A DNA stretch of 64,000 nucleotides from a virus: the IMG/VR virus record IMGVR_UViG_3300048599_000816, positions 96,545 through 160,544 of that record; one strand, 5' to 3'. Position numbers and translations under genes: made by a program. Position 1 is the first letter of the stretch. Each line of letters opens with the position of its first letter. Below are positions 15,781-61,370 of this stretch, piece after piece. The notes below the pieces were generated by a model, which worked only from the letters and a program-made list of their open reading frames with translations, was not told where the DNA came from and made no database searches.

Positions 15781-16459
15781 CACAACAGGATATTTTCACG
15801 TTGCTTTAATGCAAAATCTTGGTGGGTTTTCTGTTGCATCAGAAATGCATGGTCGTTTTTTACAATCAGGTTTGTATGATGCAACAGATGAAATCAATAT
15901 AGTGATTCTTGGTGACAAAACGCAAGCTAACTTCTTTATTGATTATATTGTAAACACTCATAAAAAATATAAACTCAGATTTTTTGACCCAAATATTTCA
16001 TTATATGAATGGCCAACTTTATCTTGCATTTATGAAGATTGCAAAACATCAAACAATGATGTCTGGTATGTACATACAAAAGGTGCAAGTAATTGTAGAC
16101 CTGACGTACCTGCAAGAATCCAAAGAAATATAAGATCGTGGCGAGGTGTAATGTCTTACAATATTATTGGAAAACACAAACTTTGCAAAGAAATATTGAG
16201 TGAAGGAATTGATGCTACTGGTGCTTTTTATCAAAAAGAAGTTAATTGTTTTTCTGGTAATTTTTGGTGGTCAAAAGCAAGTCACATACGTTCATTAAAA
16301 GAACCTATGGGAACTAGAAATGAAGCTGAACTTTGGGTGTGTACTAACCAGCAAGCAAAATATGAAAGTTTATATGATTTTGCAAGACTTGACATTTATG
16401 ATTTTGAAAATTTTTATGGTGAAAAAGGTTCTTTATGTTACAGTCCAGGTAGTATTTAA
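15767..16459 (+). CDS. hypothetical protein
   Basis: ORF track; overlaps the upstream plus-strand gene by 14 nt. Confidence 0.3.
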   Translation: MESTNTTGYFHVALMQNLGGFSVASEMHGRFLQSGLYDATDEINIVILGDKTQANFFIDYIVNTHKKYKLRFFDPNISLYEWPTLSCIYEDCKTSNNDVWYVHTKGASNCRPDVPARIQRNIRSWRGVMSYNIIGKHKLCKEILSEGIDATGAFYQKEVNCFSGNFWWSKASHIRSLKEPMGTRNEAELWVCTNQQAKYESLYDFARLDIYDFENFYGEKGSLCYSPGSI

Positions 16460-19346: not shown

Positions 19347-22328
19347 TTACTTAACTATTTGAATTCTATTTGTTGTCGAAAATTCTTTACCAATTTTAAA
19401 TTGATAGAGATAAGTTCCTGTTGTTGCATGCACTGTTGTATTATAGCATCCAGGATTCATGTTTCTATCATTTTTATATAAAATCTTTCCATTAAGTGAA
19501 TAAATAACTAACTGTACATTATTTTGTTTTGCAACAGAATATTTTACTATTCCTTTTGAATCCATATTGAAAGAATTACAAAGAGTTTTATTTGAAGAAA
19601 TAACTGATGTTGTTGGTATATTTGAAATCACCTTCACAGTAAAAGATACTTTACTTTTTCCATCTGAAATTGTGAATGTTAACGTGTCATTTATAACCTT
19701 TTTAAGTGTTATTGAATAGATTGAATCTTTAATGGTTACGACAAGGTTAGTCACACTGAACTTAGTTGTATCATAGGTATATATTAACTTATCTCCATCA
19801 GGGTCTATGGCCTTCGCGTTAATTGTAACAGGTTGATTCAAACTTTTAATTGTTATTGTAGTGTCAGAAGGTATTATAGGAAGTCTATTTTTATCAAGGA
19901 TTGTTATTACAGCTTGTTTTTCGACTGATACTTCACCATCAGAAACAACAACCTTTAAAGTTTGAATTCCTGCTGAAGTATAATTTGTAGTTATTTTGCA
20001 AGTACTATTTTCTGAAACCAATGTTGAACCAAGATACCATTTTGTAGAAAGAAGTGTTCCATCAAAATCAGACGTTGAAACTGTAAAATAAAGACTATCA
20101 GTCTCAGTAATTGTAGTATCTTTTAAAATTGTTGTTATTACTGGAGCAACATTTACGTTCGAAATTACCAAAGTATAGTTTTGTTGTGATGTCGTATTGT
20201 AAGAATCTTTAGCAATAATTGTAATTGAATAACTTCCTGAATTTTGTAAAGAAGGTGTCCATGTAACAAGACCTGTAGAAAAAATTGTCATGTTTGTAGG
20301 AGCATTTAAAAGTGAATATGAAATTGTTTGTTCGTCAGTTGCTTGAACTTGATAAGTGTATAATTGATTTTCAATTCCTGTTGTAATTGGTGTTGATGTA
20401 AATATCGGTGCATTGTTTTGTGAAATCACAAGCATAAAGTTTTGTTCGCGTTTTGCATTCTCACTATCTTTTGCAACTACTGACACACCATAAGTTCCTA
20501 CAACAGGAATCCAAGAAACAAGTCCTGTAGAAGAAATAGTCATATTTGCAGGTGCAGTTTTTAATGAATAAGTTATTGGTTGTTCGTCTGTTGCATTTGC
20601 TTGATATGTATATAATTGATTTTCAATTCCTGTTGTAATAGGAGTCGATGTAAATGTTGGTGGTACATTGATTTTTGTGATTGTTAAAGAGTAAATCAAT
20701 GTATCATAACTTGGCGAAAGATTTCGTTTTTGAAAAGCATCATAATAATTTGAATTATCAGTTAAAATTAAAGTAATTGTAGTATCTAAATTTGAATGTG
20801 TAGGTGTTCCTGAAATTGTGAATTGATTTTTTGAAGTTCTTGATATTGACAACCATGAAGGAAGTTTAGAATAAGAAATAAAAGAAGAATCATTGTCAAT
20901 ATCAGTAGTCGAAATAACTTGTGAATATTGTGTTCCTTCAGTTGCTGATGTCGTTACAGATTCGTTTATTGAAATCTTTCTTGAAAAAACTTTCAAGTTC
21001 CAAACTATTGAATCAGTTTTTGAATATGAATCTTCAGTCCTAAATTTAATTTCATAACTACCTGGTTGAATTATTGAGTTTAAAGAAATTATTGAATCGA
21101 CGATTGTTAAACCAAGAGGATTCTGAGGTATTGTAAAAGTTAAAGGATTATTAAGATATTCAAATGCATGTAATGTGTCAGTATAATAAATCCTTTTTGT
21201 TGATTCATCAGTGTACCCAAGTGAGTCGACAAAGGTTGTATTAAGAAAAAAAGGCGTGTTATTAAATTTGTAAATAGAAATGTAATCAGATATTTGATAT
21301 GTTATTTCTTGTGAATTTTGTTTGTAAAGAAAATCATATAAAGGTCTTGGAAAATTGCAACTCCTTGTATACTTAGATTTTGTGTAGAAGATCCTATTTG
21401 AATTTGAAATATTGTTGTTACTATCAAGAAAAACGTTGTATGATGCAACATCTTCAGAACAAGAAACATCTCCATAATACGAATTGTTTATTTTATAATA
21501 AGAGAAGAAAGTAGTATCAACTGGATTTACAGCAAATTTTTTAACTGCAAATGAAGAATTTGTTTTTACTACAACATTATTATATAATAGTTGTCCTGAA
21601 GAATTTGTTGTCCATATACCTTGAAGATCTAGAAAGTAACCAAATATTCCTGTTGCAATTTGTGAATATGTTGATCCACTAGAAATTTTGTAAAGTATTC
21701 CATTAGAAGAAAAATATGCACAATTATTTTGGAATTTAAAATCAAGTAATGTTGTTGTTCCTGAAGTTGTTATTGTAGTTTTCAAATTCCAATCATCCAT
21801 ATAATTTTTATAGATTTTTACTTTGTTAGAATTAGGAATTGCTACAATTACATACATTGAATCAAGTTTATATGTCCTTATGTAAGAATCTAAAGTATCT
21901 CTACGTGGATCAGCAAGACCAATTTGGAAAGGTCCCGGAATTGTTGTGTGTTCAAACCTTTTTTTATTGTAAAACTTCCTTATAGAATCAAGATCATTTT
22001 TTAACGAACCTGAAGCAAAAAGACGGAAACGTGTTTCATAATCAAAACGATAATAACAACCTATATCCAATGTATCTAAAGTATCTTTAGAATCAGAAGT
22101 TAATTTCTTTGTTGCATATATACCCCAGTATGGGTCATCTGTAGTAATTTGAAAAGCAGGTGAAATGTTTGATGCAGCTTTACATTGTTGTGTCAGATAC
22201 CAACTTTTACTTAAGCCTGTATAGAAAGTAGAAGTTGTTGTGAATGAAGAAGAACTATGAAGAATTGAGACATCAGCCATGATTTTCAATGTAAGAATCA
22301 TAGCTATTGTAATTGTTTTGTTGAACAT
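19347..22328 (-). CDS. large secreted Ig-like/cadherin-like repeat protein with T9SS C-terminal sorting domain
   Basis: N-terminal signal peptide; tandem repeats of about 90 aa (PIFTSTPITTGIENQLYTYQ..ATDEQ); C-terminus LVIYSLNGKILYK...GTYLYQFKIGKEFSTTNRIQIVK fits the Por_Secre_tail pattern. Confidence 0.65.
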   Translation of the reverse strand: MFNKTITIAMILTLKIMADVSILHSSSSFTTTSTFYTGLSKSWYLTQQCKAASNISPAFQITTDDPYWGIYATKKLTSDSKDTLDTLDIGCYYRFDYETRFRLFASGSLKNDLDSIRKFYNKKRFEHTTIPGPFQIGLADPRRDTLDSYIRTYKLDSMYVIVAIPNSNKVKIYKNYMDDWNLKTTITTSGTTTLLDFKFQNNCAYFSSNGILYKISSGSTYSQIATGIFGYFLDLQGIWTTNSSGQLLYNNVVVKTNSSFAVKKFAVNPVDTTFFSYYKINNSYYGDVSCSEDVASYNVFLDSNNNISNSNRIFYTKSKYTRSCNFPRPLYDFLYKQNSQEITYQISDYISIYKFNNTPFFLNTTFVDSLGYTDESTKRIYYTDTLHAFEYLNNPLTFTIPQNPLGLTIVDSIISLNSIIQPGSYEIKFRTEDSYSKTDSIVWNLKVFSRKISINESVTTSATEGTQYSQVISTTDIDNDSSFISYSKLPSWLSISRTSKNQFTISGTPTHSNLDTTITLILTDNSNYYDAFQKRNLSPSYDTLIYSLTITKINVPPTFTSTPITTGIENQLYTYQANATDEQPITYSLKTAPANMTISSTGLVSWIPVVGTYGVSVVAKDSENAKREQNFMLVISQNNAPIFTSTPITTGIENQLYTYQVQATDEQTISYSLLNAPTNMTIFSTGLVTWTPSLQNSGSYSITIIAKDSYNTTSQQNYTLVISNVNVAPVITTILKDTTITETDSLYFTVSTSDFDGTLLSTKWYLGSTLVSENSTCKITTNYTSAGIQTLKVVVSDGEVSVEKQAVITILDKNRLPIIPSDTTITIKSLNQPVTINAKAIDPDGDKLIYTYDTTKFSVTNLVVTIKDSIYSITLKKVINDTLTFTISDGKSKVSFTVKVISNIPTTSVISSNKTLCNSFNMDSKGIVKYSVAKQNNVQLVIYSLNGKILYKNDRNMNPGCYNTTVHATTGTYLYQFKIGKEFSTTNRIQIVK

Positions 22329-32929: not shown

Positions 32930-34222
32930 TCAAATCAATTTCTTATAACATTTTGTTTTATAAAAATTATACATATAAGTTTTCATCCATTTATTAACTT
33001 TTTGAGTCTTTATTTTTAACAGTTTTGAAACTTCATTCACCCAACCAATTTTTGAAAAATCTATTGAACTATTTTCAACTATCTTTATTTTCTCAAGTTG
33101 TTTAAGCAATCTTAACAAAAGTCTTATTTTTGATTTTCGTTGTAATTCAAGTCTTTTAGAGTTATCTCTATTTATTCTTAAAGTTTTATTTTTAAAAATA
33201 TGATTCTCAAGAACCTTTGGAACATATCTATATTCACTTAAATTATTTAACAGAGTTAAAAACGAATTAATTCTTTCTTGATTTATTTCATTATATGCAA
33301 TTCTTACTACTTTCCACCCTTTAGATAATAAATGTCTATCTTTTTTTAAGTCATGTTCAAATCTAACATTACCATGCGAAAAATGTGCTGGTCCATCAAG
33401 TTCAACAGCAAGTTTTATATTAACAAAAGCAAAATCAATAAAATATGGAAATTCAGCATATTCACTTACAATATCATACTTCTCATTCAAATTAAATTTT
33501 AAAACGATTTTATCTATGAACCACTGTTCTAAAGAACTTGGTATTTGTTTATTTCTTTTTTCCCAAGCTGTTTTACCTGTTCGTTTTTTTAAATATTCAA
33601 ATCTTGTTTCTCTTATTTTATCTTTTGTAGCTGTAGAATGTTTAAAAACTTCTGGGTTTTGTTTATGAACTAGTTTAATCGCTTCTGATAAAGAACGATG
33701 TTTGTCTTTTAAAGCAACTGTTATGAGAGATTTATGATAACCAGCTCTAATAAGTTCATAAGTTGACATACCAGAAGAATACATTTTTATAATTTCATTA
33801 ATTTGTTGTTCAGAAAAACATTTATGTTTTTTGAAATTTCCAGAATTGAAAAATCTTTTACATTGAGTACATTGTTGTTTTTTAAAACAACTTGATATTA
33901 CTTTTTGTCGAGTACCTATAAGATAAGATTTTTTAAGACACTCACTAGCGTTATGTTTTCTCTTGATGTCTTTAATATAGAATTTTACTAATTTTTCGGA
34001 ATATCCTCTTCTGACTATCTCAGTAAATAGCATTCCAGAAATATACAAATTTCTAATTTTATTGATTTCAGTTTTTGATAGAACGCAATTTCTTTTGTGT
34101 TGTATAAATCCAGTCAAATTCTTTAAAATCCTGCCACAATTATCACATTGTAATGGATTAAAAACTGGAGCGAGAAGACTTGAACTTCTAACTCTCGGAC
34201 TCAAATTCCGATGTTCTGCCAT
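32930..34222 (-). CDS. free-standing homing-endonuclease-like protein (C2H2-type Zn fingers, HTH, DUF559/Vsr-like nuclease)
   Basis: CDNCGRILKNLTGFIQHKRNC, CTQCKRFFNSGNFKKHKC, C-terminal YFIDFAFVNIKLAVELDGPAHF...GWKVVRIAY. The ORF-track N-terminus (MAEHRNLSPRV..) is a translation of tRNA-Gln, so the true start is uncertain. Confidence 0.55.
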   Translation of the reverse strand: MAEHRNLSPRVRSSSLLAPVFNPLQCDNCGRILKNLTGFIQHKRNCVLSKTEINKIRNLYISGMLFTEIVRRGYSEKLVKFYIKDIKRKHNASECLKKSYLIGTRQKVISSCFKKQQCTQCKRFFNSGNFKKHKCFSEQQINEIIKMYSSGMSTYELIRAGYHKSLITVALKDKHRSLSEAIKLVHKQNPEVFKHSTATKDKIRETRFEYLKKRTGKTAWEKRNKQIPSSLEQWFIDKIVLKFNLNEKYDIVSEYAEFPYFIDFAFVNIKLAVELDGPAHFSHGNVRFEHDLKKDRHLLSKGWKVVRIAYNEINQERINSFLTLLNNLSEYRYVPKVLENHIFKNKTLRINRDNSKRLELQRKSKIRLLLRLLKQLEKIKIVENSSIDFSKIGWVNEVSKLLKIKTQKVNKWMKTYMYNFYKTKCYKKLI

Positions 34223-36707: not shown

Positions 36708-37688
36708 ATGAAAGCTGTAATAGTAGGTTGTGGATTAGCAGGTAGTATTGCTGCTAGAATTCTTTATGACAAAGGATGGGATGTACAAATTTTTGAGACT
36801 AGAAATCATATTGCAGGAAACTGTTTTGATTCGATTTTAAATAACGTTACAGTTCACAATTATGGCCCTCACATTTTTCACACAAATTCTAATCAAGTCT
36901 GGGAATTTATTAACAAATTTACAAAATTTAACAATTTTACTTTCAAAGTAATAGCAAACACATCAAAAGGTTTTGTCCCAATACCTTACAATAAGAAAAC
37001 AGAAGAAATCACAGGAAAACTCACTGATCAACAAATACAAGAATTGTTGTTTGTTGACTATTCAGAAAAACAATGGGGAATTAACTGGAACGAAATTCCA
37101 AAAGAAATTATTAATAGAGTTCATATTAGAAGAGACAACTATGACGACAGATATTTTTGTGATACATATCAAGGAATACCAGAGTTTGGCTACACGAAAA
37201 TGTTTGAAAACCTTTTAAAAAACATTAAAATAAATTTGAATTGTAAAAAAAATGACTGGAAAAAAGAAAAAAGTGATTTAGTTATTTACACTGGCAAACT
37301 TGATGAATATTTTGATTTTTGTTACGGACAGTTACCATATAGATCATTAAACTTTGAACATATTTTATCAAAACCAAGAGAACACTGTTTTATAAATGAA
37401 TGTAATAAAATAAACAAATATACACGTTCATATGATCATAGTCACTGGTTATTTCAACAAGTACAACAAACAATAATCACATATGAATACCCATGTGAGC
37501 ACACATCAGAAAACAATGCTTTTTACCCAATTTGTACTAATGAAAATTTAAAAATAAAAACTTTATATGAAAATTTAGCTTGTAAAGAAAAAAATGTATA
37601 TTTCTTAGGTAGGTTAGCAAACTACAAATATCTCAACATGGATAATATTATAGAACTTGTGTTACATTTTTTCTCTAAACGATTGTGA
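36708..37688 (+). CDS. glf: UDP-galactopyranose mutase
   Basis: VIVGCGLAGSIAA (GxGxxG), HIAGNCFD, YGPHIFHTNSNQVWEFINKF signature. Confidence 0.8.
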   Translation: MKAVIVGCGLAGSIAARILYDKGWDVQIFETRNHIAGNCFDSILNNVTVHNYGPHIFHTNSNQVWEFINKFTKFNNFTFKVIANTSKGFVPIPYNKKTEEITGKLTDQQIQELLFVDYSEKQWGINWNEIPKEIINRVHIRRDNYDDRYFCDTYQGIPEFGYTKMFENLLKNIKINLNCKKNDWKKEKSDLVIYTGKLDEYFDFCYGQLPYRSLNFEHILSKPREHCFINECNKINKYTRSYDHSHWLFQQVQQTIITYEYPCEHTSENNAFYPICTNENLKIKTLYENLACKEKNVYFLGRLANYKYLNMDNIIELVLHFFSKRL

Positions 37689-37694
37689 CAAAAC

Positions 37695-38327
37695 ATGAAA
37701 ATTGCATATGTTTATTCTTCTTCTCATGAAATTTTAAAAGACTATTTCTTTTTGGGCACTATGTGTGAACAATGGGAATTGATAGAAAAAAAATCAGATG
37801 AACATTCTACAGGCGATTATTTGTCTTCTGGTTGGTCAAAAATAGTAAAAGAAAAAATAAAAACATATATAGAAGTTATTAAAAATAATACTGACGAAAT
37901 TGTTGTTTTTTCTGATGTTGATATTACTTGGTTTAAACCTGTACAAGAAATTATAAAACAATGTCTAACACAGAAAGATATTGTTTTTCAAAAAGAAAAC
38001 TTACACAATGAAGAAGTCAATACTGGTTTTATTGCTATCAGGTGTAATAAAGATGTAGAAAACTTTTTTCAAGATGTTCTTGACAACATAGAAGACAATG
38101 ACCAAACAACAGTAAATCTTCTATTAAGTAACAACAAAATAAAATGTAATTATGGGTTTTTACCAGTAAGTTTTTCTAACGACAACTTATCACCCTGTCA
38201 AGACATTTTATTATATCATTCTATTTGTACTAAACCTAAAAACGGAAAAACTTCATTGCAAATTAAATATGAAAAATTATTAAAAATGAGAAGTTTTGTT
38301 TTAAATTCACAAAACATTTTGAGGTGA
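37695..38327 (+). CDS. nucleotide-sugar glycosyltransferase (DxD), putative
   Basis: VVFSDVDITWF DxD motif; forms an operon with glf. Confidence 0.4.
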   Translation: MKIAYVYSSSHEILKDYFFLGTMCEQWELIEKKSDEHSTGDYLSSGWSKIVKEKIKTYIEVIKNNTDEIVVFSDVDITWFKPVQEIIKQCLTQKDIVFQKENLHNEEVNTGFIAIRCNKDVENFFQDVLDNIEDNDQTTVNLLLSNNKIKCNYGFLPVSFSNDNLSPCQDILLYHSICTKPKNGKTSLQIKYEKLLKMRSFVLNSQNILR

Positions 38328-38974
38328 AAATGAAATTGTCTATTTGTACTCAATTACTTGATTGGAATTTTGGATTAAAAGAAGCTCTTCCTACTTGGTT
38401 AAAACTCCCTTGCAATGAAATAGTAATTTTCGACTGGGGAAATGGGAAAGAATCTGCAAAAGAAATAACAGACCAATATTCAGACTCAAGAATAAAATTG
38501 ATTATTGGTCAAGAAAAAATACCTTATAGTCATACAGTGTCACGGAACACATCAATAAGACATACGACAAGTGACTTAATCTTTTTTATTGATTCAGATA
38601 TAAAGATTTTGTCATCAACAATACCCGAAATACAACAAGACAATTTTATGCAAGGAAGTGAAGAGATTTGTGCGTTTGGGACATGTATTTTTTGGAAAAA
38701 ACATTTTGAACAAGTTAATGGATTTGACGAGCGTATGTCAGGCTGTTGGCATTTTGATAGAGATTTTTATGAACGTTTGACTAAAATAAATGTTAATAGA
38801 GTAGAGTTTCCACAAAATATGTTTCAACATGTAAACCACGATAATGCAGAACGAGTCAAAAATTTTGAAATTAAAGACCCAGGTGTTTATCGCCAGTATA
38901 ATCGTGATATCTCTAAAGATTCAAAATGGGATTGCAATTACAAACAAAAAATTTTAAATGTCAAGTTCGTTTAA
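38324..38974 (+). CDS. GT-A-fold glycosyltransferase, paralogue A
   Basis: ICTQLLDWNFGLKEALPTWLKLPCNEIVIFDWGNGKESAKEI...FFIDSDIKI (DxD). Confidence 0.45.
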   Translation: MKMKLSICTQLLDWNFGLKEALPTWLKLPCNEIVIFDWGNGKESAKEITDQYSDSRIKLIIGQEKIPYSHTVSRNTSIRHTTSDLIFFIDSDIKILSSTIPEIQQDNFMQGSEEICAFGTCIFWKKHFEQVNGFDERMSGCWHFDRDFYERLTKINVNRVEFPQNMFQHVNHDNAERVKNFEIKDPGVYRQYNRDISKDSKWDCNYKQKILNVKFV

Positions 38975-40251: not shown

Positions 40252-41262
40252 TTATTTTTTTATTGTTCTTTCATAATCTTCAAAACGAATTTTTGCAATT
40301 TTTGAACGATCAGCTGTTCTCGCAACAACACCCTCAGGTTTACCTTCTAACCCTTTATCTAAAGATGCAAAAGTCGATCCGGGTAAAATATACTTTAACC
40401 ATCCATAAGTCTTTTCAACGCTTTTAGGCGGATTATAAGCTGGAATACTTGGTACAAGGTCGCAATAGATTCTTTTTGCTATTTTTTCGATTTCATCTTT
40501 AGTAACAAATTTTTGACCACCATTGTCTCTCCATGAAGCAATTTTATCTAAAGGTAAATCAAGCAATTCTTCAAACTCTTTTGCGCCCATTATCATAACA
40601 TCAAATAATCTAAAACCAAGATTACCTGTTTTAGTGTATTGTTTTGCGCTCTTTGTTGCTTTACCACCGTATGTCTCACCAAATAAAACATAAACGCGTT
40701 GTTCAAGTTCATCGTGCAACATACGTCTTGCATTATCAGCAATAGTTCGTACTGTTTCAACAATATCATGTACTGGATTGAAAATAATATCGCCATAAGC
40801 ATGTAGTAACTCTTCTCTTGATCCAATGACATACATATCTTTGGGAAAAAGAATTATACGACTATTTACCCCATCAATTTTTTCAGAAACAAAAATTTCT
40901 TCAACAGATTCAAAAGAAACCAATACTTCGTCTTTTAAAGATCCTCTATCGCCAAGCGCATGATATGTAAGAATACTAGGGTATTTAGTTGCAGAATTCA
41001 CTTTTTTAAGATCAAATGAACGTATATTAGTACAATATTTACCGTAATCAGGATTGCTCTTCATTAAATCGTCAATAGTTGCTGGTCTAATATTCCATGA
41101 GATTTGTTCGCAATTCCCGCAAACACAATCCATAGAAAGCGAAATAGCATCGTATGGCATTAAAACTTCGTTTTTGCAATTTTTACAAACTATCACGCCA
41201 AAAGAGCTTGGTGGACAAAACTTTCCTTCATGAGTGCTACCACAAAAAATACAATGTCCCAT
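40252..41262 (-). CDS. ATP-dependent polynucleotide ligase-family nucleotidyltransferase, probably an RNA ligase, with N-terminal Zn-finger domain
   Basis: Motif I EKIDGVN (KxDG), motif III VLFGETYG, motif V LEGKPEGVVARTAD. No room for a C-terminal OB domain. N-terminal Cys cluster CIFCGS..CKNCKN..CVCGNC. Confidence 0.5.
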   Translation of the reverse strand: MGHCIFCGSTHEGKFCPPSSFGVIVCKNCKNEVLMPYDAISLSMDCVCGNCEQISWNIRPATIDDLMKSNPDYGKYCTNIRSFDLKKVNSATKYPSILTYHALGDRGSLKDEVLVSFESVEEIFVSEKIDGVNSRIILFPKDMYVIGSREELLHAYGDIIFNPVHDIVETVRTIADNARRMLHDELEQRVYVLFGETYGGKATKSAKQYTKTGNLGFRLFDVMIMGAKEFEELLDLPLDKIASWRDNGGQKFVTKDEIEKIAKRIYCDLVPSIPAYNPPKSVEKTYGWLKYILPGSTFASLDKGLEGKPEGVVARTADRSKIAKIRFEDYERTIKK

Positions 41263-43385: not shown

Positions 43386-43988
43386 TCATTTCTTCACACA
43401 AAAAACACTATAATTTCCAAAAGTTGGTTTTCCAAAATGAATCGTCATATCAGGTTCAAGTCCTGTCTTTCTTACATAGATGGAAAATCTACTATCTAAC
43501 ATATCGTACAAATCGTTCTCAGTATAATGTTTGATGTGATATTTCACAACTCTATGATCAGGGTATCTTACTCCATTTGGAGTAGTAAAACACCAAATGC
43601 CTTTTTCTTTCAAAACTCTGTAAACTTCACTAATCATCTGTTCAGCATCAGTCACATGTTCAAATGTCTCAACAGAAATTACAGTATCAAAAGTTGCATT
43701 CTCTTCAGGTATCTTGCAAATATCACCAACTTCATATTTTATTTTTTCATCTGCATAATACTTTTGAGCAAATTCAATTGTTTCTGGATCAATGTCATAT
43801 CCCTTTACAGATTGTGCTCTATTTGAAAGCATCTTCGATCCCATACCACATCCACAAGCAATATCTAGAACAACTTTATTTTCAGCTGCTACCAAAAATT
43901 CTCGATACATCAGATCATGAATATCAATATTACCCTGACCTTGCTTATCATCATGTTGCGGAACTATTCTTTCACCTGTGTAAATCAT
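43386..43988 (-). CDS. class I SAM-dependent methyltransferase
   Basis: Motif I VLDIACGCGMGS and the DxxxF acidic motif. Confidence 0.6.
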   Translation of the reverse strand: MIYTGERIVPQHDDKQGQGNIDIHDLMYREFLVAAENKVVLDIACGCGMGSKMLSNRAQSVKGYDIDPETIEFAQKYYADEKIKYEVGDICKIPEENATFDTVISVETFEHVTDAEQMISEVYRVLKEKGIWCFTTPNGVRYPDHRVVKYHIKHYTENDLYDMLDSRFSIYVRKTGLEPDMTIHFGKPTFGNYSVFCVKK

Positions 43989-44689
43989 TAATCTTTCCTT
44001 ATATAAACGTGTTGATCAATAAATTCTCTCTTCTTAGAAAACACTGGGATACTCAAATCAACATCGTTATTTACAATGCAAAAACCTCGTTTCCGAACAA
44101 TCGGATATTTATCGAAATTGATTCCTTTTTGAAAGAGCATCTCTTGTATTACGTTGCAACTTACTTTTTTTAACTCTTCATGAGAGAAATGCTCTCTTCC
44201 TGCCATTTGAATTGCATTTCTTGTTGCATCAATCTGTCTCCAGATAAAATAATTTGTCACATCATCTTGCGGAACAGAAAAGACTCTACTATCAAAACAA
44301 ACATTCTTTCCATGCAACCTTGAAAAAACTGCACTTGCTAGTGATGCTGAAATAGAAATCATTTTTCGTGCATCATACCCAAACCATGGATCAGTCCCAA
44401 TTGTTTTGTAATCAGTCAAAAGAAAACTAATCTCATCAGATTGACAATAACAAAATGTACAACCTTGCATATCTTTTTTGACTGTTTTTGCAGTTTCAAT
44501 CATCTGCTCAACAAACTCCATTGACCATGCTTTGCCAAATCTCTTACGTGTAATAGTATGAAATGCGCGACCATCAATTCTCAGAATAACTGGTACTCTT
44601 CGTACCATAGTCCAAGCAGACACAGATTCGTAGGTTTTAAACCGATTTCCAATCTCAAGCCCATCACTACTCATACATTTACCTTTCAA
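43988..44689 (-). CDS. Thg1-like protein (tRNA 3'-5' nucleotidyltransferase/polymerase family)
   Basis: VPVILRIDGRAFHTITRKRF (RIDGRxFHxF) and CQSDEISFLL (SDExSF), the two Thg1 signatures. Confidence 0.8.
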   Translation of the reverse strand: MKGKCMSSDGLEIGNRFKTYESVSAWTMVRRVPVILRIDGRAFHTITRKRFGKAWSMEFVEQMIETAKTVKKDMQGCTFCYCQSDEISFLLTDYKTIGTDPWFGYDARKMISISASLASAVFSRLHGKNVCFDSRVFSVPQDDVTNYFIWRQIDATRNAIQMAGREHFSHEELKKVSCNVIQEMLFQKGINFDKYPIVRKRGFCIVNNDVDLSIPVFSKKREFIDQHVYIRKD

Positions 44690-45991: not shown

Positions 45992-46007
45992 TATAAAAGT
46001 TTAAAAA

Positions 46008-46175
46008 TGGTTGCATCTGAGTTATCAATGCGTAGTTTTGCTTTTGACAGTTTAAACGACTGTTGCCTGTACCATTCGGCTACTTCCCCACTAAATCGAC
46101 ATAATCAACTTAGTGGGGAAGCTTGGACTCGAACCAAGAAAAAAATGTAAGCATTAAACGTTAAAAGATGCAACC
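46008..46175 (-). tRNA. circularly permuted tRNA-like gene, copy 1 (anticodon loop CGUUUAA; UUU would be Lys)
   Basis: RNA-sense order: helix strand GGUUGCAUCU, spacer, T-arm CUUGG-UUCGAGU-CCAAG, 3' acceptor CUUCCCC, discriminator A, 19-nt loop, 5' acceptor GGGGAAG, U8A9, D-arm GCC-GAAUGGUACA-GGC, anticodon arm ACAGU-CGUUUAA-ACUGU, spacer, helix strand AGAUGCAACC. Confidence 0.55.
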
Positions 46176-46176
46176 A

Positions 46177-46198
46177 AATATTTTCAAAGAACTAAATT
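46177..46198 (-). promoter_or_regulatory. conserved promoter-like motif AAAT(A)TTTTCAAAGAACT upstream of permuted unit 1
   Basis: One of six near-identical copies, each abutting the 5' end of a minus-strand RNA gene. In RNA sense it reads AGTTCTTTGAAAAT, containing TTTG. Confidence 0.45.
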
Positions 46199-46203
46199 AA
46201 AAT

Positions 46204-46370
46204 GATTGTGTCTGAGTTATCAATGCGTTGTTTTGCTTTTGACAGTTCCTAATACTGTTGCCTATACCAATTCGGCTACTCCGCCACGCAATTGACATAA
46301 TCAACTGAGTGGCGGAGCTTGGACTTGAACCAAGAAAAAATGTAAGCATTAACGGTTAAAAGACACAATC
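46204..46370 (-). tRNA. circularly permuted tRNA-like gene, copy 2 (anticodon loop AUUAGGA; UAG would be Leu)
   Basis: Same architecture as copy 1 with compensatory changes: closing helix GAUUGUGUCU/AGACACAAUC, acceptor CUCCGCC/GGCGGAG, T-arm CUUGG-UUCAAGU-CCAAG, D-arm GCC-GAAUUGGUAUA-GGC, anticodon arm ACAGU-AUUAGGA-ACUGU. Confidence 0.55.
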
Positions 46371-46392
46371 AATATTTTCAAAGAACTAAATT
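46371..46392 (-). promoter_or_regulatory. same motif upstream of permuted unit 2
   Basis: aatattttcaaagaactaaatt. Confidence 0.45.
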
Positions 46393-47294: not shown

Positions 47295-48242
47295 TCATAT
47301 TCGTTTCCTAAAGTATTGTAATTCAGGGAAAAAGTCTTTCAACTTTCTCTTTGTATGTGTATGGCTTAAATTCATTTTTTTACTTAATAAAGTAAGCCAA
47401 CCAAACTTTGTAATATCTATGTTTCTTAATTCATTTTCAAATTTTTGCTTTTGCGAAATTAATTTGTCAAATCTTTCCTGCTTTATTTTTTTGCTATATT
47501 TTTCTCTTTCTATTATTTTCTTTTGTCTTTCTAAATAGCGATTAATTTGTAAATTTTTAAAATTTTCATCAATTAAAACTTGATCAACTTTATTTTCGTT
47601 TAAAGCATTTTGTAAAAAACAAATACAAGATTCAATATCGTTTCGTATATGTTTTGCTTTAAATCTTAAAACCTTCCATCCTTGTGATTTTGACCACTCA
47701 TCTCTTCTTTGATCTATTTTTTTTACATGTTCAAGTTCATGTGTATAACCATCAATCTCAACATCTATTTTTAATAATGGGAAAGCAAAATCATATTCAT
47801 AAATCCCACAATAATATTTTTGAATCCACCCAGTGATATTGTTTTTTTCTAAAGTTTCTCTAAAATATTTTTCTATCCAACTTTCTTTTGACGAATGATT
47901 TAACTTATAAGGAACTTTTTCAGGATGTTTGTTCAAATATTTAATTCTTGACTTTCTTATTTTATCTTTAGTTTTTTCAGATAATTTTACAGGATGCAAT
48001 TTTGCATATAATTTTATTGAATCAGAGCGTGTTCTTTTTACATCTCTCATTATGAAACAAGCAGTTGTTTGTGCACATCCTAAAAGCTTTGATATTTTTG
48101 ATAAAGAAAGTATTCCTTCAAGATATGCTTCTTTTAATTGACTTATTTTTTCTTCAGTTAAACTACAACTTTCCTCATGTTTATTTAAGTTTTTTTCAAG
48201 TTTAAAAACTCTACCACATTTCGAACAATGACTTTTTGTCAT
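47295..48242 (-). CDS. free-standing homing-endonuclease-like protein (Zn finger, HTH, DUF559/Vsr-like nuclease)
   Basis: CSKCGRVFKLEKNLNKHEESC; YEYDFAFPLLKIDVEIDGYTHE...GWKVLRFKAKHI. Lies between tRNA-Val and tRNA-Lys. Confidence 0.6.
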   Translation of the reverse strand: MTKSHCSKCGRVFKLEKNLNKHEESCSLTEEKISQLKEAYLEGILSLSKISKLLGCAQTTACFIMRDVKRTRSDSIKLYAKLHPVKLSEKTKDKIRKSRIKYLNKHPEKVPYKLNHSSKESWIEKYFRETLEKNNITGWIQKYYCGIYEYDFAFPLLKIDVEIDGYTHELEHVKKIDQRRDEWSKSQGWKVLRFKAKHIRNDIESCICFLQNALNENKVDQVLIDENFKNLQINRYLERQKKIIEREKYSKKIKQERFDKLISQKQKFENELRNIDITKFGWLTLLSKKMNLSHTHTKRKLKDFFPELQYFRKRI

Positions 48243-50222: not shown

Positions 50223-50295
50223 CGGGGGCTGGATTTGAACCAGCGATCGGAAGTTTATGAGACTTCCCAGTTAACCTGACTACTAGTACCCCGCA
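50220..50295 (-). tRNA. tRNA-Met(CAT), second copy, with 1:72 mismatch
   Basis: T-arm GCUGG-UUCAAAU-CCAGC, anticodon stem GAAGU/ACUUC with loop CUCAUAA; acceptor UGCGGGG/CCCCGCU has a U1-U72 mismatch. Overlaps the 3' end of the downstream endonuclease ORF. Confidence 0.5.
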
Positions 50296-51181
50296 ATTTC
50301 AAATTTTCAATCAAAACTTTTATACATTCATTAACATTGTTTTTCACTTGTGTTGCTGTAAAACGCAATACTTCCCAACCATTTTGTTTTGACCATTCAT
50401 CACGTTTCTTATCTTTCTTTTTAACAATATCAAGTTCATGAGTTTTACCATCTATTTCAACATCAATTTTTTCTTTAACAAAAGCAATATCATATTCATA
50501 AATTCCAATTCGATATCTAGATTGCCAATTTTCAATATTATGTTCAATTAAAGCTTTTTTAAATAATTCTTCTACATAAGATTTTTTTGAACTGTGATAC
50601 AATCTGTATGGAAGTTTTTCAGGATGTTCATTTAAAAATTTCAAACGATTTTCAGAAATTTTCAGTCTTGTTTGTTCTGAAAAAACAATTTTTCTTTTTT
50701 TATTTTTTAAAACATCTTGAATAATTTTTTTTCCGTACAATTTTCTAAGTTCATTTTTTTCTATTCCTGACTCCCATTTGCTTGTTATAATAGAAGTAAT
50801 GTCTAGATTGTTTTTAATTATATAAATAGCACAACTTTTTTTATGTTTTGCAAAATTACCTGCGTTAAACATTTTTCCACACGCGCACTGAACATCTTTA
50901 GAAAAAACTTTAAAACTTGTGACTTTCTTTCTTTTTGGATTTGTATGTGAACATTTTTGACTTTCACTTGTAGTTCGTTTTTTCACATTTCTAAGTGCAT
51001 AAACAATTTCTGTTTTCGACAACCTCGTTTCTTGCATAATTTCATGAATTGACATGCCTTTAACATATTTCTCAATAATATTTTGACAATCATGAAAAAA
51101 CAAATTGCAACCAGATACGTGTTGCGTACATCCAGATTTTGTTGAAAACTCTCTTTTACATTTTTTGCAAAAATAACTCAT
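50255..51181 (-). CDS. free-standing homing-endonuclease-like protein (Zn finger, HTH, DUF559/Vsr-like nuclease)
   Basis: Trimmed to MSYFCKKCKREF; the upstream part of the ORF-track ORF (GGSRLVGLRPRP) is tRNA-His translated. YEYDIAFVKEKIDVEIDGKTHE...GWEVLRFTATQV. Confidence 0.6.
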   Translation of the reverse strand: MSYFCKKCKREFSTKSGCTQHVSGCNLFFHDCQNIIEKYVKGMSIHEIMQETRLSKTEIVYALRNVKKRTTSESQKCSHTNPKRKKVTSFKVFSKDVQCACGKMFNAGNFAKHKKSCAIYIIKNNLDITSIITSKWESGIEKNELRKLYGKKIIQDVLKNKKRKIVFSEQTRLKISENRLKFLNEHPEKLPYRLYHSSKKSYVEELFKKALIEHNIENWQSRYRIGIYEYDIAFVKEKIDVEIDGKTHELDIVKKKDKKRDEWSKQNGWEVLRFTATQVKNNVNECIKVLIENLKLRGTSSQVNWEVS

Positions 51182-51198
51182 ATTTTTATATTTTAAAA

Positions 51199-51277
51199 TG
51201 GGGTGGTAGAGCAGATTTGAACTGCCGATCACCGACTTCACAGGTCGGGGTCTTAGACCAACTAAACGACTACCACC
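51199..51277 (-). tRNA. tRNA-His(GTG) with genomically encoded G-1 and 3' CCA
   Basis: G-1 plus acceptor GUGGUAG/CUACCAC, discriminator C73, CCA present in the DNA. Anticodon stem CCGAC/GUCGG with loop CUGUGAA. Confidence 0.6.
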
Positions 51278-51298
51278 ATAAATTTTCAAAGAACTCTC
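51278..51298 (-). promoter_or_regulatory. promoter-like motif upstream of tRNA-His
   Basis: ataaattttcaaagaactctc, directly abutting the tRNA 5' end. Confidence 0.45.
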
Positions 51299-51560
51299 TA
51301 AAACAAAAAACTCCATCTTCTTTTTGAAGGTGGAGTTTTGTAAGTTTTCGTATTTTATAAGTTACTTAACTGAACTTCACCTTGTGTCTCAAGCATGACT
51401 GATGACTATGGATCATATGATGAACCATACTTATTTGCCATGTTTTTAATGAAGTTATTTGAATCATAATCCTTTGTCTTTGTGAATTACCTGTTTAAAT
51501 ATAACAAATTTTGCGTCAAGTGTACAGGTTTTTTTACATTAAAAAATTCTGGGTTTTGTC
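51295..51560. repeat. noncoding repeat module, copy 2
   Basis: Hairpin ctccatcttc-ttttt-gaaggtggag with T-run, then the same conserved blocks as 48655..48940. Again sits between an upstream minus-strand gene and a tRNA. Confidence 0.5.
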
Positions 51561-56770: not shown

Positions 56771-58228
56771 TTATTCTTTTTTTTCATCGACGCTATCAAA
56801 AATACCTTTTGTAGTTACGCCAATTTTACTAAGAAGACCACTAATGTCAAAACCCATTTGACTCATAACTTCTTGAAGCATTCCTAAATTTTTAGGAACT
56901 TGTCCTGCAAACTTTTGCATTCCGCTTTGACCATTTCCTGAGTCGATAATAACAACTTTATCAATAGCAGAAAGAGGTTGTGCAGCTTCTCTAACAATTG
57001 CAGGGAATTTTTCTAAGATACTTGGTAATTTCTCAAGGATCATTTGAAATTGTCCTGCATCATCAAGCATTTTATAAGCTTCAGCTTTTTTCATAAGACC
57101 TTCAGCTTCACCCATAAGACGTGCTTTGATTGCGGCTCCTTCAGCTTCTCCAATTGCTAAGATTCTTGCAGCTTCTCCTTCACCTTCTAATCGAAGTTTA
57201 CTCTTTGCAGCTTCAGCACTTTTAATTGTTGAAGCACGTTCACCTTCAGCTTTGGCAATTTTTGCAGTTGCTTCTTTTTCAGCAGGAACAACTTTTTTCG
57301 CATGTTCTTCTTTTTCAGCGACAAGAATCATTTGTTCTTGAACCGCAATATTTGCTTTTTGACGAGCTTCTTCAATACCGACTTGCGCTTTTATAACTTC
57401 TTGCATTGCTTCAGCATCAGATCTTGGTCCTGCTTGCTCTGCACGTGCTCGTTCTGCAGCTACTTGCGCATCAAACATTGCTTTCTTAACATCACGTTCT
57501 TTAATTGCTTCAAAAGTAAGAGCATCGTTCTGTGCTGCAGCAATATTTCCATCTTTTTGTGCTGATGTTGATTGTTGTTTTGCTTCTTTATCTGCATTTG
57601 CTTGTCCAATTGAAGCATCACGCATAACTTCAGCAGTACGTTTTTTACCAAGGGACTCAATATACCCTGCATCATCAGTGATACTCTGAATATTTAAAAT
57701 GTCAATTCCAACACCAATTTTCCCAAGTTCACCGTCAGCTTCTGATTTTACTTTATTATTAAGAGCTTCACGATCTTTAATTAACTGTTCAATAGACATT
57801 GTACCAATTACTGAACGTAATTGACCTTCAAGGTTTTCTTGAACTGTAACATGAATATCAGCATCTCTTTTCCCTAAAAATCTTTCGACAGCTGCATTAA
57901 GCGATGCTTGATCGCTTTTAATCTTACATGTTGCAACAGCATCAATATTTACTTTAACACCATCTAAGTTGGGAATTCCTTTTAATGGCATTTTCAATTG
58001 AAAAGCCGCCATATCCATTACTTGATAGTCTTCAATAACAGGCCATTTGAATTTAGCACCGCCAGTTACGACAACAAAACCTTTATCAAGATGTTTTCTT
58101 CCAAAGAAAACAGCTGCTTTGTTGGGTGGTACTTTGATATAGTTCTTTGCAAGTAATGCGACGACAACTATTAAAGAAATTACAGCACCAACTACTACAA
58201 TTATCGGTAAAAAATCTTTAAATTCCAT
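56771..58228 (-). CDS. flotillin / SPFH (band-7) domain protein
   Basis: N-terminal TM helix, SPFH core (KAAVFFGRKH...VDMAAFQLKMPLKG), then a long Ala/Glu-rich coiled coil (EAARILAIGEAEGAAIKARLMGEAEGL). Confidence 0.75.
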   Translation of the reverse strand: MEFKDFLPIIVVVGAVISLIVVVALLAKNYIKVPPNKAAVFFGRKHLDKGFVVVTGGAKFKWPVIEDYQVMDMAAFQLKMPLKGIPNLDGVKVNIDAVATCKIKSDQASLNAAVERFLGKRDADIHVTVQENLEGQLRSVIGTMSIEQLIKDREALNNKVKSEADGELGKIGVGIDILNIQSITDDAGYIESLGKKRTAEVMRDASIGQANADKEAKQQSTSAQKDGNIAAAQNDALTFEAIKERDVKKAMFDAQVAAERARAEQAGPRSDAEAMQEVIKAQVGIEEARQKANIAVQEQMILVAEKEEHAKKVVPAEKEATAKIAKAEGERASTIKSAEAAKSKLRLEGEGEAARILAIGEAEGAAIKARLMGEAEGLMKKAEAYKMLDDAGQFQMILEKLPSILEKFPAIVREAAQPLSAIDKVVIIDSGNGQSGMQKFAGQVPKNLGMLQEVMSQMGFDISGLLSKIGVTTKGIFDSVDEKKE

Positions 58229-59361: not shown

Positions 59362-59397
59362 AAAACAAAAAAGTCTCTGGCGCAAGTACCAGAGACT
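59362..59397 (-). terminator. rho-independent terminator of ssrA
   Basis: agtctctgg-cgcaagta-ccagagact, followed on the minus strand by TTTTTTGTTTT; about 50 nt past the tmRNA 3' end. Confidence 0.6.
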
Positions 59398-59449
59398 TTA
59401 ATGAAGAGCTGGGATAGCTCTTTAGACAGGACAGGGATAAAAATTAAAA

Positions 59450-59852
59450 TGGAGGTAAAGGGAATTGAACCCTTGTCCATAGAACAATCCAAACAAACTT
59501 CTACATGTTTATCTGATTTGTATCTTACATTCTTTTATCTTAAAACCAGAAAACTTTCTAAAAGAACGGCATAAACGTAATTTCGGTCCCCTTCTCACTT
59601 ATGCACTTCGGTTTTCCTACGCTGTGTCAATTAGATCTTAAGCTCCACAGTATTGCCTAAGTTCTTCGTTGCTTTTAATTAAGCAACAATTGTATTCGCC
59701 ATGCCCAAACGAACATTGTTCGCAAAAGCAAGAGCGAAATTAACTGCAATTTTGTTGACAGTTATATTGTAACCAGATTTTTAACGAGGCCAACTGATCA
59801 TCCTCGGCATGCAATCTGCACTTCATGTTCCATGTCGAAACCTGATACCCCC
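59450..59852 (-). ncRNA. ssrA: tmRNA (SsrA)
   Basis: RNA sense starts GGGGGUAUCAGGUUUCGAC...GCAUGCCGAGG...GUUGGCCUCGUUAAAAA, close to E. coli SsrA (GGGGCUGAUUCUGGAUUCGAC...GCAUGCCGAGG...GGUUGGCCUCGUAAAAA). The 3' end is tRNA-like: T-arm AAGGG-UUCAAUU-CCCUU, acceptor 3' UACCUCC-A pairing with 5' GGGGGUA including the G3-U wobble. The internal tag ORF ends ...ANTIVA-UAA. Confidence 0.8.
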
Positions 59853-59875
59853 CCAAAATTTTCAAAGAACTTTAT
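59853..59875 (-). promoter_or_regulatory. promoter-like motif upstream of ssrA
   Basis: caaaattttcaaagaactttatc, abutting the tmRNA 5' end. Confidence 0.45.
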
Positions 59876-60164: not shown

Positions 60165-61370
60165 TCATCCTACAGGTAATCCTGACATGTATCCATTAGT
60201 TTCACCAACTAAATCTTTCATACCTTTTGCTTTAACTTCTTCAAATTGATTTTGAAAAACAAAAAACAATCTCATGACCGAAGTTGGTTTTTCATCCCAA
60301 TCAGAAACTTTCAAAGGATCAATAACAAGTTGTTGATTTATTTCAGCACCTGCACCTACACCTACTTCTTTTACTGGTGTTTCAATTCTTTGTTGAATAG
60401 CTAAATCAACACAAGCTCCACCTGCTACACCTTCAGGTCCATTGAGTCCTTGTACGCCACGTACTCCGGATTCATGATCGACATTGCTATAAAAAGAAGC
60501 ACTATCTAAGCAAGCATAACTCTCTGCAGATCCTGTTGCAAGTTTTCGACTATTAGAAAGACTTTCAAAACTAGAATTTGAGCTTTTTACGCTTCTCAAT
60601 GCCATTTTAGAATTTGACTTATTTACAGTCAGATTTGCGTCTGGATTACTTTCTCCAAGACCAATGCTCCCTGCTGCATAACATTGAGTAGATGTGTGAA
60701 AATTACAGCTTTTTGCTAAATAATTTGAAGAGGATATATGGTTTGAATACTTAATTGGTTCATTATAAGTATGCCAGATTGTCTGTTGAATAACTGGACG
60801 TTCTCTTCTTACTTTAGATCTAAAGAAAGCAAAGCCAAAAGCGGGAACTGTATCTTCTTTACCAATTACTAATTCAGGAATAGATTTTGCAAGATCTTCT
60901 GTAAAAAAGAATTGTCTTACTTTTCCATCACTTGTACGAAAACCATCCCACCATAATCTATTTGGGTGCGATACATAATTTTGCGCAGGCCACTTGAAAT
61001 TACATTTTTCGCAAAACAAACCTTCTTTGAAAGGTTCATCATGTATAGGACACTTGTCAACATATCTTTCAAGTGAAAACCCGTTAGAACGTTGTCCTGT
61101 AATTGGATTCATGCCTTTTATTGACATTAAAACTGCAGTGTTCATTTCATCATTGAGCGTCCAATCAAACCACAATCCCCAATTAGGATCAACAGGAATT
61201 ACATAGTTACCTTGTCCTGGAATCCAAGATGACAAAGGCTCTTTGAAAGAGTCAACTGGATAAACAGGTATTTGACGTCCAGAAGGAAGATCATGTACAC
61301 CTTCACCTGTCAACCTTATTGCTCTCATTATTCGTGCTGAAAACCCATTAAAATTCATTGTATACATCAT
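60165..61370 (-). CDS. hypothetical protein
   Basis: ORF track; 401 aa; C-terminal Gly/Ser/Ala-rich region. Confidence 0.35.
   Translation of the reverse strand: MMYTMNFNGFSARIMRAIRLTGEGVHDLPSGRQIPVYPVDSFKEPLSSWIPGQGNYVIPVDPNWGLWFDWTLNDEMNTAVLMSIKGMNPITGQRSNGFSLERYVDKCPIHDEPFKEGLFCEKCNFKWPAQNYVSHPNRLWWDGFRTSDGKVRQFFFTEDLAKSIPELVIGKEDTVPAFGFAFFRSKVRRERPVIQQTIWHTYNEPIKYSNHISSSNYLAKSCNFHTSTQCYAAGSIGLGESNPDANLTVNKSNSKMALRSVKSSNSSFESLSNSRKLATGSAESYACLDSASFYSNVDHESGVRGVQGLNGPEGVAGGACVDLAIQQRIETPVKEVGVGAGAEINQQLVIDPLKVSDWDEKPTSVMRLFFVFQNQFEEVKAKGMKDLVGETNGYMSGLPVG

Follow-up and report, generated by a model that had tools for sequence, protein, structure and literature searches.

The 64,000-nt stretch of viral DNA analyzed here (positions 96,545 to 160,544 of IMG/VR record IMGVR_UViG_3300048599_000816; referred to below as the window) carries, on its minus strand at 59450-59852, a gene for a one-piece transfer-messenger RNA (tmRNA; ssrA). 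This was the sole tmRNA call that ARAGORN made in the window (403 nt), and the Rfam model RF00023 matched 59447-59852 on the same strand with 127.2 bits (E 2.3e-49; gathering score 47), the alignment covering the whole model (positions 1 to 374 of 374). An initial annotation of this DNA had proposed a 403-nt minus-strand SsrA RNA containing the sequence blocks UUCGAC, GCAUGCCGAGG, and GUUGGCCUCGUUAAAAA, and had named ARAGORN or a tmRNA covariance model as the check. Both tools call a tmRNA on the interval, ARAGORN with the same length and strand and RF00023 over its full length, and all three blocks were found in the RNA. We conclude that 59450-59852 is a real, complete one-piece tmRNA gene. 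The features of the locus are as follows.

59450-59852, minus strand: one-piece tmRNA (ssrA) gene, from ARAGORN and RF00023, ending at the discriminator A
59858-59870, minus strand: promoter-like motif GTTCTTTGAAAAT, ending 5 nt ahead of the mature tmRNA 5' end
59846-59852 (GGGGGUA) with 59451-59457 (UACCUCC), minus strand: acceptor stem, 7 of 7 pairs, with G3:U70 and the discriminator A at 59450
59771-59806, minus strand: pseudoknot 1 (PK1), stem 1 CGAGG/CCUCG and stem 2 GAUCAG/CUGGUU, all pairs forming
59679-59759, minus strand: tag reading frame, with the most likely resume codon GUC at 59759-59757, 26 codons, and the stop codon UAA at 59681-59679
59668-59687, minus strand: helix-5 hairpin, GUUGCUU-AAUUAA-AAGCAAC, 7 of 7 pairs
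59622-59661, minus strand: pseudoknot 2 (PK2), CUUAGGC/GCUUAAG and CUGUG/CACAG
59458-59474, minus strand: T arm, AAGGG-UUCAAUU-CCCUU, with a loop of the GGUUCNANUCC type
59362-59399, minus strand: intrinsic terminator, a 12-bp stem (5 G-C pairs) at 59399-59370 with a 6-nt loop, followed by TTTTTTG

Helices were read directly and then checked against the orthologous tmRNAs of three other contigs and against one distant relative. The orthologues lie on L003 (a 149-kb Logan contig; tmRNA 98% identical to that of the window), L004 (a 30-kb JGI digester contig; 91% identical), and L001 (IMGVR_UViG_3300029288_006769, contig Ga0265297_10000052; 424,144 bp), and the distant relative lies on L165, a 149-kb contig. 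An RNAalifold consensus built on the four orthologous tmRNAs, which are 74 to 98% identical, predicted 109 pairs and showed compensatory double changes in 13. The acceptor stem GGGGGUA/UACCUCC carries G3:U70 and the discriminator A, in agreement with the tRNA-Ala-like ends and G3-U pair of the initial annotation; the G3:U pair never varies, and covariation is seen at positions 6 and 7, which read UA/UA in the window, UG/CA in L004, and CG/CG in L001. The anticodon arm is replaced by P2, a long helix of ~27 pairs in which RNAalifold finds several compensatory changes. Stem 2 of PK1 covaries (UCUGGA/UCCGGA in L001 and UGAUCG/CGGUCA in L165), as does stem 2 of PK2 (CUGCG/CGCAG in L004 and UCGUGU/ACACGA in L001). 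Helix 5, whose 5' strand and loop hold the final two tag codons and the UAA stop, has a covarying counterpart in L165 (GUCAUCU/AGAUGAC). The T arm has one additional G-C pair in L003 and L004 and shows a compensatory change from A-U to C-G in L001. The PK3/PK4 region has low posterior probability in the RF00023 alignment, and RNAalifold places nested helices there. Judged by these comparisons, and leaving PK3/PK4 aside, the canonical sequence and structure elements for trans-translation are all present and covary among relatives.

CCA is not encoded at the 3' end of the window tmRNA, where ...ACCUCCA is followed by UUU; the tmRNA genes of L003, L004, and L165 encode it. No CCA is encoded by at least 16 of the 18 window tRNAs either, so that its absence from the tmRNA gene looks like a habit of this genome and not a defect, and posttranscriptional addition of CCA to the tmRNA is expected.

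Resume codon and tag peptide

The initial annotation described a tag reading frame ending ...GMANTIVA followed by UAA UUA A, as is seen in the sequence, and left the resume codon ambiguous between a GCA (22-aa tag) and a GCG (14-aa tag). The frame stands, and the two codons and tag lengths probably do not: ARAGORN and Rfam place the start at a GUC that is in frame with the GCA and precedes it by four codons, giving 26 aa. ARAGORN assigned nucleotides 94-174 of the tmRNA as the coding part and read the tag peptide as VNKIAVNFALAFANNVRLGMANTIVA*, and in the RF00023 alignment the consensus resume codon falls on the same GUC (59759-59757). In E. coli tmRNA, the spacer is 11 nt (AAAAAAUAGUC) and the near-invariant A86 at position -4 determines frame choice (PMC2481249). 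The window, L004, L001, and L165 all have exactly 11 nt between the PK1 3' strand and the resume codon, and U(-5)A(-4) precedes the resume codon in all four lineages. The pentanucleotide ahead of this codon reads UAACU or UAAUU: UAACU before GUC in the window, UAAUU before GCC in L001, and UAAUU before GGC in L165, the codon of L001, the most distant orthologue, being the canonical GCC. Both GCA and GCG lie at least 23 nt past PK1 and were rejected as resume codons; the downstream GCA of L001, moreover, is preceded by AUUAU and lacks A(-4). Given the placements by ARAGORN and Rfam, the 11-nt spacer, and U(-5)A(-4), the resume codon is most likely GUC, which would add the 26-aa tag VNKIAVNFALAFANNVRLGMANTIVA after the alanine borne by the tmRNA.

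The tag frame bears the marks of translation. Its length is fixed at 26 codons in the orthologues; the L003 tag is the same as that of the window, L004 has VNKIAVDFALAFANNVRLGIANTIVA, and L001 has ANNYAVKFALAFANNVRLGVANSVVA. Comparison of the window with L004 and with L001 (three distinct orthologous frames) yields 19 substitutions, with 12 at codon position 3, 5 at position 1, and 2 at position 2 (binomial P = 0.007 for the third-position excess), and the replacements are conservative (M/I/V, T/S, I/V, and N/D/K). This third-position bias, together with the constant length and the conservative replacements, indicates that the frame is translated, and by these measures it is evolving like coding sequence, under coding-type selection.

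The C-terminal peptide of the window tag is ...ANNVRLGMANTIVA, and in the orthologues the tag ends in ...TIVA or ...SVVA, that is, in a hydrophobic stretch with a terminal alanine that is not LAA. The initial annotation considered the IVA end atypical, which holds against the cellular tags that we retrieved (see below), all of which end in LAA, MAA, or YAA. The E. coli tag is an efficient degron when engineered to end in ...LVA, which provides a lead, and the hydrophobic ...IVA end probably still works as a degradation signal. The L001 tag resembles two joined tag-like halves, ANNYAVKFALAF and ANNVRLGVANSVVA, which hints that the tag arose by internal duplication or by read-through of an ancestral ...FALAA stop. 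A resemblance to the Campylobacter tag ANNVKFAPAYAKAA is conceivable.

Carrier genome and comparison with other tmRNAs

Directly upstream of the tmRNA, at 60165-61370, is a 401-aa open reading frame (ORF) whose family has 521 matches in a large protein database, the longest listed contigs spanning 91 to 422 kb. A 55%-identical homologue of this ORF lies at ~200 kb in L001, and directly downstream of that homologue is the L001 tmRNA (147 bits), ~200 kb from each contig end. Gene order is kept on both sides of the tmRNA in L001, L003, and L004. The nearest relatives of the window are 149- to 424-kb contigs from wastewater, digester, and similar metagenomes. A metagenome scan with the degenerate pattern AFANNVRLG returned seven matches. 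Only two marked a genuine tmRNA locus, one on the 424-kb contig and one on an activated-sludge contig that carries the L004 version of the tmRNA; five were chance matches without a tmRNA. Exact and near-exact scans of viral contigs with three tmRNA segments found only the 424-kb contig, and a nucleotide search of the INPHARED phages with the tmRNA gave no match.

The window itself has a uniform GC content of ~30% with no boundary, and almost all of its genes lie on one strand. They include 18 tRNAs; HNH, GIY-YIG, and DUF559 endonucleases; Thg1, an RNA ligase, a polynucleotide-kinase-like protein, and a tRNA methyltransferase-like protein; ThyX, NadE, PurM, ParB-like proteins, and glycosyltransferases; and many ORFans. 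Strong PHROG matches were obtained (phrog_9677, 6e-91; phrog_8638, 6e-87; phrog_4717, 1e-67), and no integrase was seen near the tmRNA. Because the same neighborhood recurs in three other contigs, one of them a 424-kb IMG/VR contig with the tmRNA ~200 kb inside, we conclude on the basis of synteny that the tmRNA is phage-borne, in an accessory region of a huge phage, and that it does not represent a host ssrA bordering a prophage. The initial annotation had likewise placed it within a block of phage-like genes, which the synteny of both flanks with L001, L003, and L004 bears out, and had raised the possibility that the flanks were host chromosome; they are syntenic with the interior of the 424-kb viral contig.

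Cellular tmRNAs for comparison came from one scan of genome contigs with a PK1 plus resume-context pattern. It located 38 loci in Verrucomicrobiota, Planctomycetota, Kiritimatiellota, Deinococcota, Armatimonadota, Hydrogenedentota, and others, and a tmRNA could be called at 35 of them; the search pattern skews this sample, which says nothing on Bacteroidota, of which it holds none, or on Campylobacterota. Their tags are 9 to 19 aa long. Globally, these tmRNAs are 56 to 66% identical to the phage tmRNA, hardly above unrelated tmRNAs among themselves. A phage-tmRNA profile run with nhmmer aligned to them over the first 100 to 130 nt and the last ~65 to 90 nt only, leaving the central ~200 nt (about nucleotides 126-333) unalignable. 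Nothing among the 38 pattern-selected loci pointed to a recent cellular donor. A Bacteroidota origin, implied in the initial annotation by its choice of Bacteroidota tmRNAs for the comparison, found no support in these data.

With E. coli SsrA and RF00023, the window tmRNA has in common the tRNA-Ala-like domain with G3:U70 and A73, the T arm, the long P2, PK1 with GCAUGCCGAGG...GGCCUCGU, the 11-nt spacer, U(-5)A(-4), the stop codon in the helix-5 loop, and the downstream pseudoknot PK2. It differs from bacterial one-piece tmRNAs in its tag (26 aa versus 9 to 19), the IVA/VVA end, the GUC (Val) resume codon, its location in a 30%-GC phage genome, the unencoded CCA, and the lack of an adjacent smpB.

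A generic PK1 scan of IMG/VR gave 120 matches on viral contigs, most of them enterobacterial genes with the tag ANDENYALAA that typically lie less than ~1 kb from a contig end. Host ssrA genes at prophage borders thus also occur on contigs labeled as viral, but near contig ends and with ANDENYALAA; in contrast, the tmRNA described here is interior, as seen in the 424-kb relative, and is unlike every cellular tmRNA retrieved. Long tags were found on other viral contigs as well: 26 aa in L165, 29 in L150, 30 in L157, 32 in L101, 42 in L068, and 23 in L073, the resume codons of L101, L068, and L073 being our own assignments. By their contig coordinates, the tmRNAs of L068, L101, L150, L157, and L165 lie well inside their contigs, and all six have a PK1 of the same sequence type. 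The L165 tag, GKSNVDFCLAFGALCYANARQDIAVI, has 26 codons after an 11-nt spacer and a core, ...VDFCLAF..., that resembles ...VNFALAF.... Overall, these six long-tag tmRNAs are ~64 to 69% identical to that of the window and have different tag sequences, with the C termini AVI, ALV, LAA, VAA, and LPA. The L068 and L101 tags share a ...VAEAD.(V/I)LA(R/K)FG... motif. Since tags of 23 to 42 aa occur on six other viral contigs, long tags look like a recurring feature of virus-borne tmRNAs and not a peculiarity of this one.

Phage tmRNAs have been cataloged since those of the mycobacteriophage Bxz1 group and Bacillus phage G (PMC4131195), tmRNAs and SmpB are among the translation genes of huge phages (Al-Shayeb et al. 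2020, PMC7162821), and ssrA was found in 402 of 18,146 phage genomes (2.3%) in a survey (PMC9004378); the marine myophage Melnitz is another documented carrier. As in these phages (the Bxz1 group, phage G, huge phages, and Melnitz), the window has a full ssrA amid many tRNAs and translation genes, with a patchy distribution in its clade. It differs from Melnitz, whose tmRNA is two-piece and riboswitch linked, in being one-piece, and from known phage tmRNAs in its tag sequence and in belonging to a lineage known from metagenomes only. Phage tmRNAs, long tags included, are already documented; the distinguishing feature here is the conserved 26-residue tag. With this locus, huge-phage tmRNAs gain a well-supported lineage, seen solely in metagenomes, in which sequence evolution indicates that the tag is translated, and the resume codon of the initial annotation is corrected. 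By itself the finding changes no current view and would not surprise a specialist. To our knowledge, phage tmRNAs are functionally unexplored, and we know of no one who has shown what a phage-specified tag does; the conserved 26-residue IVA/VVA tag is a concrete, testable reagent.

Proposed function and alternative explanations

We consider it highly probable that the interval is a functional one-piece tmRNA of a huge phage, one that would rescue ribosomes together with host factors. Transcription would start at the GTTCTTTGAAAAT motif, which also heads phage tRNA clusters, and would stop at the hairpin at 59399-59370. Host enzymes would trim the ends of the tmRNA and add CCA, host alanyl-tRNA synthetase would charge it by way of G3:U70 and A73, and host SmpB and EF-Tu would deliver the charged tmRNA into stalled ribosomes. 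Translation would then restart at the GUC 11 nt past PK1, appending Ala and VNKIAVNFALAFANNVRLGMANTIVA, and the ribosome would be freed at UAA. The likely benefit is that ribosomes are kept available during infection, alongside the adjoining tRNA supply and repair genes. The initial annotation had suggested that ribosomes could be rescued during host shutoff or that tagged proteins could be retargeted, and both ideas are conjectural.

Several observations weigh against this interpretation. The window copy lacks both an encoded CCA and one T-stem pair, which the 98%-identical L003 copy has. A tblastn search with an E. coli SmpB query that may be inexact found no match in the 64-kb window and the fetched flanks, a range outside which most of the phage genome lies; with no SmpB gene in the window and CCA unencoded, host factors would be needed. 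Neither capsid, portal, terminase, nor tail genes were seen in the window, so the phage assignment draws on the relatives and the gene content. In L006 to L009, contigs with more distant homologues of the 401-aa ORF, no tmRNA or remnant was present within ±10 kb, so that the tmRNA is accessory and dispensable within the clade. Finally, pairs that RNAalifold predicts within the tag (columns 119/158 and 125/153) overlap the third-position signal, and two tag substitutions scored as synonymous also compensate for changes in predicted RNA pairs, so that RNA structure could explain a few of the changes scored in this way.

An alternative explanation for the locus is that it is the host's own ssrA, either at the boundary of a prophage or other integrated element or joined to viral DNA in a chimeric assembly. 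ssrA is a classic integration site, and most of the 120 PK1-pattern matches in IMG/VR, being ANDENYALAA genes typically within ~1 kb of contig ends, are what this explanation would lead one to expect. In the present case, however, both flanks are syntenic over four independent assemblies, the tmRNA is ~200 kb from either end of the 424-kb contig, the ~30% GC content runs on uniformly with neither a boundary nor a nearby integrase, and the cellular tmRNAs retrieved are similar only in the universal 5' and 3' cores (56 to 66% globally). These comparisons leave the prophage-edge explanation hardly credible, and we regard it as largely refuted. It is also highly improbable that the carrier is another kind of giant extrachromosomal element with translation genes, such as a megaplasmid or a Borg-like element. 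The window holds ParB-like proteins and none of the virion genes named above (capsid, portal, terminase, or tail), one homologue of the neighboring 401-aa protein was binned into a "Nanoarchaeia" metagenome-assembled genome, and large putative plasmids have similar suites of translation genes (Al-Shayeb et al., PMC7162821). Against these points, the 424-kb relative is cataloged as a viral genome in IMG/VR, many PHROG matches are strong (phrog_9677, phrog_8638, and phrog_4717), and homing endonucleases are interspersed among the tRNA genes, as is typical of large lytic phages.

The remaining alternative concerns function. We think it decidedly unlikely that the tmRNA serves mainly as a replacement or a decoy in an antidefense module, with general ribosome rescue not its main role; it might replenish tmRNA or tRNA cut by a host defense nuclease, or it might titrate host SmpB. 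The gene does adjoin a set that looks suited to supply and repair (18 tRNAs, the RNA ligase, the polynucleotide-kinase-like protein, and Thg1), phage tRNAs are proposed in the literature (PMC10264068) to counter tRNA-targeting defenses, and a phage tmRNA that consists of the tRNA-like domain only, that of DS6A, was suggested to titrate SmpB (PMC4131195). However, the tmRNA retains its full mRNA-like region along with a resume context and a stop codon, and its tag is coding constrained, none of which a pure SmpB sponge would need. Features of nuclease resistance are unreadable from sequence, and the replacement idea is compatible with ribosome rescue and not exclusive of it.

Beyond ribosome rescue by the phage tmRNA with host factors, it is conceivable, if unlikely, that virus tmRNAs (this lineage, L165, L150, L157, L101, and L068) evolved their 23- to 42-aa tags to reprogram host protein quality control. 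We take the tmRNA of mycobacteriophage Bxz1 to belong with these long-tag tmRNAs. If the idea were true, long tags would steer stalled chains away from ClpXP to another protease or adaptor, to sequestration, or to protection, and the phage would reprogram host quality control rather than just boost it.

Transcription signals, neighboring genes, and tandem tRNA-like RNAs

The sequence (G)TTCTTTGAAAAT, or a variant with one mismatch, sits 1 to 19 nt 5' of the tmRNA and of three tRNA units, in keeping with the promoter-like motif that the initial annotation had described as common to the tmRNA and the tRNAs. The copies ahead of the tRNA units are as follows.

51292-51282, minus strand: motif before tRNA-His
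48649-48639, minus strand: motif before the tRNA-Tyr cluster (Tyr-Lys-Phe-Lys)
47137-47127, minus strand: motif before the tRNA-Val cluster (Val-Trp-Ser-Leu)

The motif also heads two tRNA-like RNA units at 46384 and 46190. Upstream of the tmRNA, GTTCTTTGAAAAT is kept in L003, L004, and L001, as is a T-rich stretch farther upstream, to ~59900 (CTTGTTTGTTTTATTGTATTTTT). A sigma-70 scan gave no good, suitably placed site. Bacteroidota -33/-7 promoters have 23 to 25 nt between their elements, whereas the TTTG elements before tRNA-His are ~13 nt apart. Because it fits neither class, we name the element only as a phage-specific promoter-like motif. The relatives encode a weak Sigma70_r4 protein ~10 kb upstream, and a phage-specified promoter at GTTCTTTGAAAAT is plausible.

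A terminator scan found two terminator-like sites in the region versus 0.4 expected, and the clean terminator that the initial annotation had placed after the tmRNA is the 12-bp stem and T tract listed above. L003 and L004 have this hairpin too, ~720 nt farther downstream, where it ends the locus past an inserted ORF. The insertion, between the tmRNA 3' end and the terminator, occupies 11915-12640 in L003 and 11886-12640 in L004 (equivalent to 59400-59449 of the window). Its ORF, which has no Pfam match, is 238 aa long in L004, a frameshift shortens it to 142 aa in L003, and it has a C-terminal pattern, SKGE...EFD...EYNG..H, that resembles Vsr/DUF559-type endonucleases. The difference at the tmRNA 3' end looks like an insertion/deletion polymorphism of a mobile endonuclease.

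Among the tRNA clusters are three minus-strand ORFs of the DUF559 family (Vsr-like endonuclease fold), at 32930-34222, 47295-48242, and 50255-51316, two of which overlap tRNA genes as mechanically called; the three probably act as homing endonucleases and reshuffle the tRNA island. Also on the minus strand are the RNA ligase (40252-41262), the Thg1-family tRNA-His guanylyltransferase with an adjoining methyltransferase (43386-44689), and the polynucleotide-kinase-like protein (3311-4273). Together with the 18 tRNAs, these look like a set for tRNA repair and maturation in which the tmRNA may participate.

A protein with SPFH/Band-7 and flotillin domains is encoded at 56771-58228 on the minus strand and at 13666-15129 in L003 and 13649-15106 in L004, and its position, three genes past the tmRNA, is conserved in the close relatives. 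FtsH, which is among the proteases that break down SsrA-tagged proteins, is modulated in E. coli by the SPFH proteins HflK/C; the proximity of the SPFH gene to the tmRNA may be coincidental. In L003, the start of a gene with a Cas_Cas7 Pfam match (21114-21203) lies ~9 kb downstream of the tmRNA, pointing to a CRISPR-Cas module encoded by the phage.

Among the few plus-strand blocks in the window, the largest (36708-38974) encodes a UDP-galactopyranose mutase and two more ORFs. The mutase is 87% identical to metagenome proteins and ~50% identical to thousands of other homologues, and the search with it was uninformative about the host, indicating no donor. GC skew is +0.185 at 20001-22000 and negative in all other 2-kb bins; the positive bin lies in a 993-aa ORF (19347-22328, minus strand) that has no PHROG match.

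The two tRNA-like RNA units mentioned above are tandem copies of ~190 nt at 46004-46384 on the minus strand, each headed by GTTCTTTGAAAAT, and they have a homologue at 16343-16482 on the plus strand of L007. They fold at -61 and -62 kcal/mol (z of about -7), with the 5' and 3' ends in a long helix, a canonical T arm, and a 9-bp "acceptor" helix closed by a loop. They also show U8-A9, a D arm with GG, and an anticodon-arm-like hairpin (5-bp stem, 7-nt loop) with the loops AUUAGGA and CGUUUAA. In the end helix as well as in the acceptor helix, covariation is seen when the two copies are compared with each other and with that of L007. Rfam returned only subthreshold tmRNA_permuted matches and a composite tRNA match, and no Ro60/TROVE gene was seen in the window. 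YrlA-type Y RNAs mimic tRNA (PMC4201824), and the modeled layout of the tandem units matches that of a YrlA-type Y RNA or of a circularly permuted class II tRNA.

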